From a virus (lineage: Duplodnaviria; Heunggongvirae; Uroviricota; Caudoviricetes): a stretch of 18,466 nt of DNA. Location of the stretch: positions 1 through 18,466 of the IMG/VR virus record IMGVR_UViG_2872164251_000003; one strand, 5' to 3'. The notes beneath the pieces are model-generated. The model was not told the DNA's origin. It made no database searches and worked only from the letters and a program-made list of their open reading frames with translations. A program made the translations under genes and the position numbers. Within the stretch, counting starts at the first letter, position 1, and each line of letters begins with the position of its first letter. This document shows positions 10,529 to 16,549 of this stretch, one piece after another.

Positions 10529-10831
10529 AAACTGTTGCGAACCATACGCATCATATACAGCCATTGAATGGCCTTGCTCAGTTACAAATTTGGCAATCTG
10601 CCCGTTGTACACAGGATATCCGGCAGCATTGATAACAATTGGCTGAGAAACAGGGACGTGAGATCCGTCTTCATTCTCTACATAAACCTGAATCTGGTTT
10701 TCAGGATTTACCGGGTCAGTGTCAATTTTTCCGATATAAATTTTGCCATTGGCTACGGCTTTAAAAGAACGAGCCATAGTGAAGAGTTGCGAAGGCATCG
10801 ATACGATCACATTGGCTGTAATGTCTGTCAT
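10529..10831 (-). pseudogene. P22/Sf6-type tailspike, N-terminal head-binding domain fragment (about 101 aa) fused to IS629 end
   Basis: [59 protein letters not shown]...[14 protein letters not shown] matches the recalled N-terminus of P22 gp9 / Sf6 tailspike; the frame then runs into the IS629 right end ([12 protein letters not shown]-stop is IS-encoded). Confidence 0.8.
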
Positions 10832-10888
10832 TTAATTTGCTCCAGATACAATGAATCGCCGCAGCGTGGCTACGGTGAATTTTGGGCA

Positions 10889-10911
10889 TAAAAAAAACCA
10901 GCCGAAGCTGG
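10889..10911 (-). terminator. Putative rho-independent terminator between gp16-like gene and tailspike (minus strand)
   Basis: Minus-strand ccagc-ttcg-gctgg hairpin (UUCG tetraloop) followed by tttttttat. Confidence 0.5.
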
Positions 10912-10966
10912 ATAGTTGCGTTGGTTATCTGTCAGTAGTTATGTGCTTATTTAATTATTTATCTAT

Positions 10967-12811
10967 CTATTGTTCTGCTGTAATTTGGCTTGAAAGTATA
11001 GGGCGTATCGCATTTGCAGCATTATTTAACGCTCTTTCATAAGCTGCCGTTCCTGCTTTGGTGTTTGCCAAACGAAGAAGCATATTCCTTGCGGCTTTGG
11101 ACTCATACAAACGCATCATTGCACCAAAACCAGCCTCAAGCCCCATTGATACACCAAGAGTCGCAGTTGCGCCAATCGTCCTTATCCTGTTGGCTTGCGA
11201 TTGCCCCGTCTGAGTTACTACATTTGCGGTGTCTGACCTTGCTGTTTGCTGTAGAACTTCATGAAGAGCATCAAGCTCTTTCATGTGCTTTCCAGAAAAA
11301 ATAGTGTTGTAAATTTCACCGCCTGACTGAGATTTCAGCTTATTAACTTCAGTGATGAACTTGGCTGGAGAGTCACCGGCCTTTTCCGCTATTTTGCTGA
11401 CGTAAGCTGCACGCATAGCATCTTTCCCTTTATCATCCAGTGCGCTCCAGATTCGTTTCACGTCAGATGGTTTTCTGCTTAATACAACGGTATTTATAAG
11501 TTCAGGACTGGCTTCACTGCTTGCCTTGTTGAGCTTGTTAGCAATGTTTTTATTAAGCACCTTATTATAAACGTTTGCATAATCGGAATTTGCTTTAAGG
11601 TATTTTGCTGCGTCTGATGCACCGAGGTTTTTAGCAACTGCGTTACGAAGGTCTTTTGACATTGCATTCTCTACCATATTGGTAGCTGCTTTTGCCTGGT
11701 TGGGGAAGACCATAGCATCTCCCTGAACATTAGATCTAAATGCTGTTCTGTGCTGACGCAAGAGATCAAACGTAACATCCAAATCAGTTGCAGGGTTTGC
11801 TAATTCTTCACGTAGGTTACGCAAGGATGTAAGCAGGCTTTGATTGGCAGACGTCCCAAGCCGTTCCTGTCTTGCGATCGCTGTATTCAGAGCATTCATG
11901 GTATTTGTGGTATCAACTGCGGCATTACCCATTTTATTGGTGACGTCATTGATAACAGCGCCAGCGGCATCCTTCCGCCCCCTTAACGTGGTGGTAAGAG
12001 ATTTCACCACATCATCAGGGTTGTACTCACCAAAACGGTCAAAATAATTACTTACCAGCTTACTACGCGTTGCATATTGCTCCGCTCGCTTTGAGCCTGT
12101 CCCGAGCAAAGCCCCCTCGGCATCCTGAGTTAGGCCGCGAGTGAAAGCATTTTTCGGCGGGATAACATCAGATGTCATTGGTGTCACGCCCATCGATTCT
12201 GATGTGGCAATTTTCTTCGCCACTTCTGGCGCAATATCACCTTTTATAGCCGTTATTCCACGCCCTATTCCCTTTGCTGCTGCGGAAAGAACACCCTGAG
12301 CGGCAAGGTTAACTCCGGCATTTTTAGCTGCATTTTGTGCGAAATCGCCTTTCTGATTTGCGGCCTCTGCCAGTGATCCAATAGCCATGCTTCCTGCCGT
12401 TCCAACTCCTGGAACTAAATACCCACCAATTGTTTCACCGGCTTGCGCGTAGGGGTCTGTCGGTCTGTCTACTGGACGATAAACATCATCCAAAACCTTG
12501 GGTCCACCAAGCCCCTGACTGATTGCATTAATCAGACTTGCGCCGCCCTGCAATACGTCAAATGGTATGTTTACCAGACCACGACCAGCCTGTTCTGCAA
12601 TTTGCCCTGCACTTTGACCACCAGTGAGCCAATCGCCAGCTTGTTGCATCAATGATGGTTCTTCCCGTGTTGGTGCATTATTGGCCTGATTAACTGTTTG
12701 TTGCTGAACAGCCTGACCAGCAAAATACTCATCAATGGCGGTGCCAATATCTTCGGTGCTCGTACCATCAGGAAAGGTAAATGTCTTACCGTTTGCAGTT
12801 ACTTTCATCAT
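10967..12811 (-). CDS. Phage DNA-ejection / internal virion protein, P22 gp16-like (614 aa)
   Basis: Size and position (immediately upstream of a P22/Sf6-type tailspike) match P22 gene 16; N-terminus [11 protein letters not shown]... resembles gp16 as recalled; start ATG overlaps upstream stop (ATGA). Confidence 0.5.
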
Positions 12812-14757: not shown

Positions 14758-14844
14758 GATCGTCTGCCACTGCTGATTTTGCAGGTCTGCGGCATACTTC
14801 TGTGAACCGCCCCGGGTTTCCTGGAGAGTGTTTTATCTGTGAAC

Positions 14845-15735
14845 TCAGGCTGCCAGATCATCGTTTCCGATGGAAGCATAATAAGCTTTTTCTGCTTCTG
14901 CCGGAGGGATGTGGCCCAGCCTTTCCAGCAATCGTCGATTGTTATACCAGTCCACCCACGTTAGTGTGGCCAGTTCCACTTCTGCACGGTTTTTCCAGCT
15001 CTTACGGTGTATTACCTCCGCTTTGTAAAGACCATTGATGCTCTCCGCCATCGCGTTGTCATACGAGTCGCCTGTACTTCCTGTTGATGCCAGTAATCCG
15101 GCTTCCTTAAGCCGCTGTGTGTAGGCCAGCGATACATACTGAGAACCTTTATCACTGTGATGGACCGTGCCGGACGGTCGACGGGCCCATAACGCCTGCT
15201 CCAGTGCATCCAGCACGAATGTCGTTTCCATGGACGATGAGACCCGCCACCCCACGATGTATCCGGCAAACACATCAATGATGAACACCACATAGACGAA
15301 GCCCCTCCATGTGCTGACGTAAGTAAAATCAGCCACCCACAGCTGGTCAGGTCGTTCTGCCACGAACTGACGGTTTACGCGGTCGCCTGCGGCAACGGCT
15401 TTCCGGCTGATGGTCGTACGGACCTTTTTACCCCGGAGAACACCGGCAAGTCCCATAACCGCCATGAGACGTGCCACAGTGCATCTGGCCACTCTGATAC
15501 CTTCCCGTAACAACTGACGCCAGACTTTACGCACACCGTATACCTTGTGATTTTCATCGTATACGCGCTGTATCTCTTTCTTCAGCCAGTCATCGCGCTG
15601 CGCACGGGCACTGCGTTTATCCGGATGATGTCGCTGTTGCTGACAGTGGTAATACGTTGACGGGGCAATATGCAGTTCGCTGCATAGCGGTCCGACCCCG
15701 TACTGCTCACGCAGCTTATCCAGCAGTGGCATCAT
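14845..15735 (-). CDS. IS629 OrfB (DDE transposase catalytic domain, 296 aa)
   Basis: [30 protein letters not shown]...; IS3-family integrase-core-like sequence; start overlaps orfA stop (ATGATG) in the -1 frame beside an A-run, consistent with IS3-family frameshift fusion. Confidence 0.9.
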
Positions 15736-16058
15736 TTTTTCCAGAGGCGGTCGAACTCCGCCTTCGCAAAATAAGCGGAAGCCTGGCGAAGGATATCGTT
15801 ACTGCGGCGCAGTTCACGATTTTCACGCTCCAGCTCTTTCAGACGCTGACGTTCAGCGGTGGTGAGCCCTCCATCACCGCCCCCGGTATCCCGCTCATGC
15901 TGGCGAACCCAGACACGCAGAGTCTCCGGCGTACAGCCAATCTTTGGAGCAATGGAACAAATTGTCGCCCATTGTGAGTCATATTCGCCCTGACTTTCCA
16001 GAACCATACGGACTGCCCGTTGACGGACTTCGGGGGAAAAACGAGTATTTTTAGTCAT
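15732..16058 (-). CDS. IS629 OrfA (helix-turn-helix / leucine-zipper transposase subunit, 108 aa)
   Basis: [57 protein letters not shown]...; typical IS3-family OrfA. Confidence 0.9.
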
Positions 16059-16112
16059 CCTGTTTACCTCTTTCTCAGGAAGTTTAGTCTCCAGGATTCC
16101 CGGGGCGGTTCA

Positions 16113-16549
16113 GTTCTATTTTCCGAATTTGCTGAAGTATGACCCTGATCAGTTCGGTCCGGATTTAATTGAGCAACTAGCTCAATCCGGTAAGTATTCG
16201 CAGGATAACACCAAAGGCGATGCCATGATTGGCGTCAAGCAGCCTTTACCAAAAGCAGTTTTAAGAACTCAGCATGACAAAAATAAAGAAGCAATAAGTA
16301 TCCTGGATTTTGGTGTTATTGATGATGGTGTGACAGATAATTACCAGGCAATACAAAATGCAATAGATGCCGTTGCTTCACTACCCTCCGGCGGGGAGCT
16401 GTTTATCCCTGCGAGCAACCAAGCGGTGGGGTATATTGTTGGATCCACTTTGCTTATTCCTTGCGGTGTTAACATCAGAGGGGTTGGTAAGGCATCGCAA
16501 CTCCGAGCAAAAAGCGGACTTACAGGATCTGTGTTAAGGCTGTCTTATG
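16113..16549 (+). pseudogene. Tailspike middle fragment (continuation after head-binding domain), interrupted by IS1
   Basis: Frame open from the first base after the IS629 end: FYFPNLLKYDPDQFGPDLIEQ...; LKYDPDQ matches the P22 tailspike linker that follows the head-binding domain; frame ends in IS1-encoded stop. Confidence 0.75.
16541..16549. repeat. 9-bp target site duplication TGTCTTATG (left copy) of IS1 copy 2
   Basis: Identical 9-mer TGTCTTATG directly abuts both IS1 termini (16541-16549 and 17322-17330). Confidence 0.9.

Follow-up and report, generated by a model that had tools for sequence, protein, structure and literature searches.

An IS629 insertion in the tailspike gene of an Sf6-like prophage remnant of Shigella flexneri and its probable rearrangement by recombination with an inverted IS629 copy

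Chromosomal inversions in Shigella arise by recombination between inverted copies of insertion sequences (IS), and such inversions are reportedly described in S. flexneri 301 and 2457T and in later comparative genome papers. The locus analyzed here shares with them inverted IS copies as boundaries, a hybrid IS without direct repeats, an inverted target duplication and close relatives that differ in orientation. It differs from them in that the inversion is small (4.3 kb), lies inside a dead prophage, has a 5'-truncated IS as one partner and has no obvious phenotypic consequence. The same end geometry, two inverted IS copies together with an inverted target duplication, is generated by replicative inversion, a property of IS26, Tn3 and IS1-type elements, in which a single step gives rise to both the inversion and the second IS copy, whereas the relatives of this locus show a two-copy un-inverted state. 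IS3-family elements (IS911, IS2, IS3) transpose by copy-out/paste-in via a circle and produce simple insertions, and we know of no replicative inversion pathway for this family. IS629 forms target duplications of 3-4 bp and resides mostly in prophages (PMC3271280).

The window, i.e. the whole stretch of 18,466 nt that was analyzed, matches S. flexneri 3b SFL1520 (CP032513.1) at 100% identity. The locus is the tail end, now decayed, of an Sf6-like (P22-like) prophage that occupies the lambda attachment site of S. flexneri, whereas the annotated attP of Sf6 is HK620-like. This end lies between an ipaH-carrying lambdoid prophage and oac-attR-ybhB-bioA. It is without function as a phage, and the genome paper calls the downstream oac alone intact (Genome Biol Evol 2019, PMC6424224). 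Fig. 4 of that paper depicts the SFL1520 oac region: Sf6 remnants are reported with transposases as neighbours, oac is intact, and synteny with Sf6 is collinear in part and inverted in part. Although the same genome and locus are covered, the available text gives no mechanism; IS629 and its GTT duplication, the splitting of the tailspike and relatives in un-inverted order all go unmentioned in it.

The features of the locus are compiled in Table 1. The gp7-like gene is cut by the IRR end of IS629 at 14802/14803, and the intact gene with the empty site is found in Sf6 and in one further sequence (L002). A preliminary description of this DNA did not cover the third tailspike fragment beyond IS1, the loss of 38 codons from gp7 and the att core at the truncated end. 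The gp14-like protein, used as homologue query for the missing left part of the prophage, retrieved a broad family clustered at 90%.

Table 1. Positions of the prophage and insertion sequence features in the window
Feature	Position	Strand	Evidence or remark
Left half of lambda-type att core (CAGCTTT + TTT), end of P arm of ipaH-carrying lambdoid prophage	9555-9564	+	
Truncated IS629 (IS nt ~342-1310, without IRL and orfA; IRR end at 10529)	~9562-10529	+	977-bp inverted repeat with complete copy
IS629 target duplication, copy 1 (GTT on tailspike strand, AAC on plus strand)	10530-10532	-	
Tailspike fragment 1 (gene nt 1-302; codons 1-100 + 2 nt), head-binding domain	10530-10831	-	Pfam Head_binding 4.9e-58; residues 1-101 of rebuilt protein
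Intact DNA ejection protein of P22 gp16 type (analogue of Sf6 gene 13)	10967-12811	-	Phage_P22_gp16 in related contigs; 97-98% nt identity to P22-like E. coli prophages
P22 gp20-like ejection protein, intact	12808-14214	-	Pfam Inj_translocase 1.7e-77
P22 gp7-like ejection protein without first 38 codons	14224-14802	-	Matches positions 39-230 of the 230-position Pfam P22_gp7
Complete IS629, 1310 bp (orfA 16058-15732, orfB 15735-14845)	14803-16112	-	99.5-99.7% identical to full-length copies on S. flexneri plasmids
IS629 target duplication, copy 2 (GTT)	16113-16115	+	
Tailspike fragment 2 (gene nt 300-736)	16113-16549	+	Overlap with fragment 1 and match to Sf6-type gene
IS1, 772 bp, inside tailspike	16550-17321		4-bp CCTT insertion relative to IS1 at window 1-753
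Tailspike fragment 3 (gene nt 728-1872), stop codon at window end	17322-18466	+	Pfam Tailspike_C 5.4e-48

The tailspike frame begins with a start codon at 10831 on the minus strand and reaches 10530, where it abuts the IRR of the truncated IS629, the last IS base being 10529. It is picked up at 16113 of the plus strand, immediately beyond the IRL of the complete IS629. When the three fragments were joined (10831→10530 on the minus strand, 16113-16549 and 17322-18466), one open gene of 623 codons was obtained. Residues 1-623 of its product align end to end with residues 1-623 of Sf6 gp14 (PDB 7sg7) at 1394.8 bits, with 98.6% amino acid identity (tblastn) and 9 amino acid differences, and at the nucleotide level the rebuilt gene matches Sf6 gene 14 with 98.99% identity in a gap-free alignment of 1887 bp. 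The Pfam domains Head_binding, pectate-lyase-like and Tailspike_C were detected across the rebuilt protein. Length (623 aa) and domain order (head-binding, beta-helix, C-terminal) are common to it and the Sf6 gene 14 tailspike, an endorhamnosidase (PDB 7sg7, 2vbk), whereas the window gene lies in three pieces, interrupted by IS629 at codon 100/101 and by IS1 near codon 245 and with the first piece inverted, and is not an intact, expressible gene. Residues 366 and 399, considered as candidate catalytic residues of the Sf6 tailspike, are S and L in both proteins, and therefore no claim on catalytic residues is made. The split explains why this region is annotated automatically as a head-binding ORF of 113 aa and two further fragments, one of 141 aa and one of 426-439 aa, the latter labelled 'tailspike'.

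Uninterrupted tailspike genes, namely those of Sf6 and E. coli CFSAN061762, read ...GGTTCGCAGCAGTTCTATTTTC... and contain GTT just once where IS629 is inserted in the window gene. Fragments 1 and 2 overlap by exactly the three duplicated bases and no other base was lost. Since the fragments share exactly GTT and the empty sites hold it once, the trinucleotide is not a chance 3-mer. The preliminary description had claimed this duplication and had suggested comparison with uninterrupted tailspikes; the comparison agrees with the claim and the duplication is real, but its plus-strand AAC was placed at 10529-10531, one base off. The IS1 copy is flanked by a 9-bp target duplication, TGTCTTATG, at 16541-16549 and 17322-17330, which is single in both Sf6 and CFSAN061762, and its length exceeds the usual ~768 bp because of the 4-bp insertion.

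P22-like head-binding domains are conserved and common to several prophages, and one contig (L028) links the same N-domain to a different receptor-binding domain, as would be expected if the pieces came from two different tailspike genes that were each independently hit by IS629. However, the fragments overlap by just the 3-bp duplication and yield a gap-free gene, and in the relatives described below both pieces flank a single IS629 with direct GTT repeats. Independent insertions into two genes were rejected on these grounds and retain practically no probability. The fragments rebuild one Sf6-type gene that was split by IS629, as had been claimed from the outset.

The complete IS629 has the expected length and imperfect terminal inverted repeats of the TGAAC type, its ends matching at 23 of the first 25 positions. 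It encodes orfA (108 aa, HTH_Tnp_1) and orfB (296 aa, rve; NCBIfam IS3 transposase, 1e-93), which overlap and are predicted to be joined by a -1 frameshift in the manner of the IS3 family, and the Rfam ALIL frameshift pseudoknot was detected with 120 bits at 15661-15777 and with 119 bits at 9556-9672. The nearest full-length copies (99.5-99.7%) are annotated just as 'IS3 family transposase', and PGAP names partial matches 'IS3-like element IS629 family'. The second copy is short of the first ~341 nt, and one nucleotide of its orfB is deleted at IS nt 813 (window ~10033), a deletion also present in an independent assembly (L025); no record was matched by the frameshifted 240-aa orfB' in the protein look-up. 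This element had been called a truncated IS629, which holds for its missing left end; more precisely, a prophage att core is joined here to IS629 from about nt 342. Apart from the 1-nt deletion the two copies are identical over the 977 bp by which they form inverted repeats, and therefore the crossover point is not mappable and the alignment proposed earlier for this purpose defines no crossover interval. The complete copy is flanked by CTG and GTT in the window, and hence has no direct target duplication of its own.

Relatives were retrieved through the identical IpaH protein. In nine assemblies (L014-L017 and L019-L023, including CP066809.1 and CP045522.1), as well as in six similar places that are not displayed, an un-inverted order is found on one strand: gp7'-gp20-gp16-tailspike 5'-GTT-[complete IS629]-GTT-tailspike 3'. 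In these relatives the complete IS629 lies in the tailspike gene as ttcgcaacaGTT[IS629]GTTctattttcc, and in the nine assemblies direct GTT repeats surround it, i.e. a 3-bp target duplication. The truncated IS629 already adjoins gp7' in the un-inverted genomes; the tailspike IS1 is absent from them. Compared with the window, the segment carries the same 5 SNPs and 1 indel in all un-inverted genomes, versus 0 SNPs in the flipped ones. In all nine un-inverted genomes, and in no flipped genome, the IS629 copy next to gp7 lacks 55 bp (IS nt 1219-1273); this deletion either originated after the split of the lineages or reflects gene conversion alongside the inversion.

The flipped order is found in CP032513.1 and in GCA_000213695.2, which is colinear with window positions 4808-18466 at 99.93%, and also in the draft GCA_000268245.1, whose contig end looks chimeric. 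In GCA_013858115.1, a repeat-free contig joins the gp20 start via a secondary deletion to the attR-ybhB side, an arrangement that is derivable from the flipped order only. By their SNPs, the flipped genomes group as a separate clade. None of the four junctions between IS and unique DNA differs in sequence between the two states, and the same junction sequences recur in contigs from no fewer than 247 sequencing-run blocks. Since the same four junctions are present in both states, the exchange lay inside the 977-bp shared homology. The locus combines inverted IS copies at both ends, inverted duplication halves, no direct repeat around either copy and un-inverted relatives with identical junctions, all of which are marks of recombination between inverted IS copies. 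The preliminary description had proposed an IS629-mediated inversion of ~4.3 kb, and the un-inverted ancestral order in relatives and the recurrence of the flipped order both bear this out. A look-up with gp16 (614-aa ORF) returned only ~4.3 kb contigs, because the product is 613 aa long in genome annotations; the contigs bear out the junctions but do not give the orientation. An exact scan of species-representative genomes, in which Shigella apparently has no separate entry, gave no match to the tailspike-5'/IRR junction.

A 4.3-kb segment between ~1 kb inverted repeats could also have been misoriented during assembly of CP032513.1, the true state being a simple insertion. Its orientation is beyond the reach of short reads, public short-read contigs end ~30 nt into IS629 on both sides, and most related complete genomes are un-inverted. 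Yet the SFL1520 assembly was built from 470x nanopore data with a read N50 of 33.7 kb (PMC6424224), and the same order is present in the independent GCA_000213695.2 along with the 1-nt deletion and the IS1 insertion. Together with the repeat-free contig of GCA_013858115.1 and the separate SNP clade, this largely refutes a misassembly, which was rejected as very improbable.

The best explanation, in which we place high confidence, is an IS629 insertion in the tailspike gene followed by recombination with an inverted IS629 that flipped a 4273-bp segment. In the common ancestor, a first IS629 would have entered gene 7 at codon 38/39 and would later have lost its left 341 nt and joined the att core of the neighbouring prophage. 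A second IS629 would have transposed into the tailspike gene at codon 100/101, in the orientation opposite to the first and with duplication of GTT, a state that survives in most sequenced relatives. In the lineage containing SFL1520, reciprocal homologous recombination within the 977 bp of the inverted copies, probably of the RecA type, would then have flipped gp7'-gp20-gp16 and the tailspike 5' end. As a result, the duplication halves now lie inverted, and the complete IS629, a hybrid in this view, is without a direct repeat of its own. Directly observed in the genomes are both insertions and the duplication, together with the two orientation states and their clade structure.

Counting of events by itself may also be compatible with the flipped state having come first. 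In a one-step intramolecular replicative transposition, the gene 7 IS629 would attack the tailspike GTT inversely and thereby give rise, in a single event, to the second copy as well as to the inversion and the inverted 3-bp repeats, and the un-inverted genomes would be later flips by homologous recombination. The product would have the junctions of the window (IRR-AAC-tailspike 5' ... gp7'-IRR[IS]IRL-GTT) and as many events would be needed as for insertion followed by recombination. However, IS3-family elements produce simple insertions, as stated above, and the un-inverted state is far commoner (15 versus 3-4 assemblies) and looks exactly like a simple insertion, which makes the replicative route improbable.

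At the truncated end, the sequence of the att core up to 9564 is identical to attR of E. coli FDAARGOS_944 (ctcggtcagctttttt/atactaacttgagcg) and is identical to IS629 from nt 342 onwards, so that the switch falls within the TTT at 9562-9564. This junction is fixed in inverted and un-inverted lineages alike. Written as CAGCTTT/TTTTGCG, it passes from att to IS629 in bases 1-3 of the 7-bp overlap region, the part at which the first strand exchange by Int occurs. Tentatively, and with somewhat less than even chances, the 5' truncation may be the product of a lambda-type integrase acting at a secondary att site inside IS629 (CCGCTTA/TTTTGCG, in the frameshift region), and not a random deletion. 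In one route, a POP' site between two tandem att-lambda prophages would have recombined with the IS629 site and the bulk of the Sf6-like prophage would have been deleted; in the other, the ipaH phage would have integrated straight into IS629. IS629 nt 335-348 are one of several equal 8/10 matches to the lambda core in the element, and similarity alone does not single this site out.

The break of the left IS629 exactly in the att core overlap region would also suit an inversion made by the att core and an att-like site in a single tailspike IS629, with a later IS629 insertion in gene 7 and a deletion restoring the complete copy; the number of events and the final map would be the same. The att-IS629 junction is, however, already present in the un-inverted genomes, where the truncated copy lies beside gp7', and therefore the att fusion is older than, and independent of, the inversion. 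An att-core-mediated inversion was accordingly rejected and is extremely improbable.

The rearrangement is ordinary insertion-sequence-driven genome decay; this kind of event is known and the genome is published, and its significance beyond bookkeeping is small. As a caution, short-read assemblies cannot phase the 4.3-kb segment. The orientation of this segment, the tailspike IS1 and the 55-bp deletion in the truncated IS are usable markers of S. flexneri lineages with the oac remnant. The locus is a clean and fully documented case of IS629 inactivating and then rearranging a Shigella prophage, in which both the 'before' and the 'after' are kept in sequenced strains.

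The tailspike reading frame starts at 10831 on the minus strand and is open to 10530, where it abuts the right terminal inverted repeat (IRR) of a truncated IS629, and it restarts at 16113, immediately past the left terminal inverted repeat (IRL) of a complete IS629. The IS629 target duplication is present as AAC at 10530-10532 on the plus strand and as GTT at 16113-16115. For rebuilding of the gene, 10831 to 10530, 16116-16549 and 17331-18466 were joined, leaving out one copy of GTT and one copy of the 9-bp IS1 duplication (TGTCTTATG). The rebuilt gene of 1872 nt was open and its 623 aa product aligned end to end with Sf6 gp14 (PDB 7sg7, 1394.8 bits; 98.6% by tblastn, nine amino-acid differences), while Sf6 DNA matched the region at 98.99% identity over 1887 bp, gap-free at both scars. 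In Sf6 and the prophage of E. coli CFSAN061762 the tailspike is uninterrupted and reads ...GGTTCGCAGCAGTTCTATTTTC... and ...GGCTGTCTTATGATTC..., demonstrating that both duplications are true target duplications and not chance matches. This confirms the preliminary description in that the tailspike was split by IS629 and that the trinucleotide, single in uninterrupted genes, was duplicated on insertion; its plus-strand coordinates had been off by one, and the gene described as two pieces lies in three because of the second IS1.

Features of the window
Feature	Position	Strand	Remarks
IS1	1-753		cut by window start
Lambdoid prophage tail end	754 to about 9564		carries J, Lom, tail-fibre genes and ipaH
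Tip protein J	937-4416		lambdoid prophage
ipaH	7316-9079	minus	lambdoid prophage
IS629, 5'-truncated	about 9562-10529	plus	
P22-like gene block	10530-14802	minus	4273 bp
IS629, complete	14803-16112	minus	1310 bp
Tailspike sequence	16113-16549	plus	
Second IS1	16550-17321		inside tailspike
Further tailspike sequence	17322-18466		stop codon is last base of window

Relatives were gathered among complete or near-complete NCBI assemblies by exact look-up of the IpaH protein. [quoted passage not shown] In nine loci shown and six similar places, the 4.27-kb block had the opposite orientation with respect to ipaH and the rest of the tailspike. These un-inverted loci carry the complete IS629 between ttcgcaacaGTT and GTTctattttcc, a simple insertion flanked by GTT as 3-bp direct target repeats, and gp7' (gp7 without its first 38 codons) adjoins the truncated IS629 at its IRR end (cagaagtatgcc), which is exactly the ancestral state that had been predicted. 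Existence of two separate tailspike genes is ruled out with near certainty by these single-insertion relatives and the gap-free rebuilt gene. The IS629 copy next to gp7 harbored a 55-bp deletion (IS nt 1219-1273, near IRR) in 9/9 un-inverted genomes and in none of the flipped ones; either the deletion postdates the split of the lineages or gene conversion accompanied the inversion. In most un-inverted genomes nt 807-808 of the truncated copy are CA, not AG. Alleles at IS629 nt 826 and 1151 vary among genomes and match between both copies of one genome, which hints at gene conversion between the copies. One un-inverted relative (GCA_030646415.1) has an extra IS3-family element in gp16 (3971-5139 of its locus).

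The flipped order was also found in GCA_000213695.2, which is colinear with window positions 4808-18466 (99.93%) and shares the tailspike IS1 and a 1-nt deletion in the truncated IS629, and in the draft GCA_000268245.1. Positions 1-540 of the latter contig contain 26 nt of the middle tailspike fragment and then match large E. coli plasmids at 99.6% identity; this end corresponds to invasion-plasmid sequence and may have been joined chimerically at an IS. The strongest independent support for the flipped state comes from a contig of GCA_013858115.1 without any repeat. Here, a deletion fused the gp20 start (window 14231/14232) to a point ~300 bp upstream of the core of an Sf6-like attR with ybhB-bioA, removing gp7', the complete IS629, the remaining tailspike, IS1 and oac; this join can be derived only from the flipped order and places the strain in the flipped lineage. 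Within the block, flipped genomes showed 0 SNPs to the window and all un-inverted genomes carried the identical five SNPs and one indel, a split that makes the inversion look like a single inherited event, not rapid flip-flopping. The SFL1520 assembly is based on 470x nanopore coverage with a read N50 of 33.7 kb (PMC6424224). Given this coverage, the same order in GCA_000213695.2, the repeat-free contig and the SNP split, misassembly of CP032513.1 is ruled out with high confidence, and the proposed inversion of ~4.3 kb between two IS629 copies is borne out. In at least 247 blocks of public runs, short-read contigs stopped ~30 nt inside the IS629 IRR at either end of the P22-like block, showing that the junctions are widespread and that such contigs are uninformative on orientation.

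All four junctions between IS and unique DNA were identical in both states, and therefore the exchange took place inside IS homology. The simplest mechanism would be a reciprocal exchange between the inverted IS629 pair by homologous recombination. The copies are inverted repeats across 977 bp with the 1-nt deletion as sole difference, so that aligning them, the check that had been suggested, could not map the crossover interval. A one-step replicative inversion launched by the IS629 copy in gp7 would produce an identical map with an equal number of events, but it is quite improbable, as the rare state would then be the ancestral one and IS3-family elements, which use a copy-out/paste-in pathway, are not known to invert DNA replicatively. 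Inversion via the att core was ruled out, because the fusion of att and IS629 beside gp7' is already found in un-inverted genomes.

The complete IS629, whose terminal ends agree at 23 of the first 25 positions, encodes orfA (108 aa, HTH) and orfB (296 aa, rve) and contains an ALIL frameshift pseudoknot (Rfam, 120 bits), which the truncated copy retains. Duplications of 3-4 bp and a location mostly in prophages have been described for IS629 (PMC3271280). The tailspike IS1 (772 bp) differs from the IS1 at the window start by a 4-bp CCTT insertion and one substitution, and its insertion is confined to the flipped lineage (SFL1520, GCA_000213695.2).

Among the other genes of the block, gp20 had a Pfam match to Inj_translocase and gp16 was recognised in related contigs. 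The gp7 match was limited to positions 39-230 of the 230-position profile, hence the gene lacks 38 codons on its IS629 side; an intact gp7 with an empty IS site is present in Sf6 and one public contig. The block is mosaic: its first 1238 nt (gp7' and the 5' part of gp20) are 98% identical to Sf6, nt 1155-3832 share 98% identity with the CFSAN061762 prophage and not with Sf6, and the tailspike is Sf6-like again. GCA_048033855.1 (contig positions 1-10034) has the same gp7'-IS629 junction and a 99.98% identical block from gp7' to the head-binding domain. Its tailspike passes without a break into another receptor-binding protein (570 aa), behind which lie gtrC-like, gtrB, gtrA and integrase genes; the contig either is a short-read chimera or reflects a recombination event inside the conserved head-binding domain.

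An intact P22-like prophage of the same tailspike type occupies the lambda att site of E. coli CFSAN061762, beside ybhB-bioA, with an acyltransferase gene where Sf6 has oac. Directly right of the window, SFL1520 harbors oac, an intact attR (GTTCAGCTTTTTTATACTAACTTGAGCG), ybhB and bioA. This locus thus holds two prophages that used one att site. The truncated IS629 starts within the lambda-type att core belonging to the ipaH prophage (CAGCTTT/TTTTGCG; window 9549-9568) in all related genomes, flipped or un-inverted. The window is identical to attR of E. coli FDAARGOS_944 as far as CAGCTTTTTT (9564) and to IS629 from nt 342 (9562) onward, which puts the switch within the three leading T's of the 7-bp overlap region. 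The truncated end may have originated from integrase-mediated recombination at a secondary site within the frameshift region of IS629, a possibility rated at somewhat less than even odds because that site is one of several equally good core matches within the element. The IS1 at the window start interrupts the lambdoid prophage just upstream of J, and beyond it SFL1520 has pgl (lactonase) and another IS1 (18382-20456 of its locus). From this arrangement, deletion appears to have removed both the left portion of the ipaH prophage and the chromosomal stretch from pgl to att-lambda.

Inversions bounded by IS copies are well known from Shigella genomes. For SFL1520, Sf6 remnants with an intact oac and flanking transposases were described, and a figure depicts synteny with Sf6 that is both collinear and inverted; the available parts of the text give no mechanism (PMC6424224). 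Taken together, the IS629 split and inversion, correctly recognized and neatly resolved, belongs to a known and ordinary class of events and lies in a genome that was already published.
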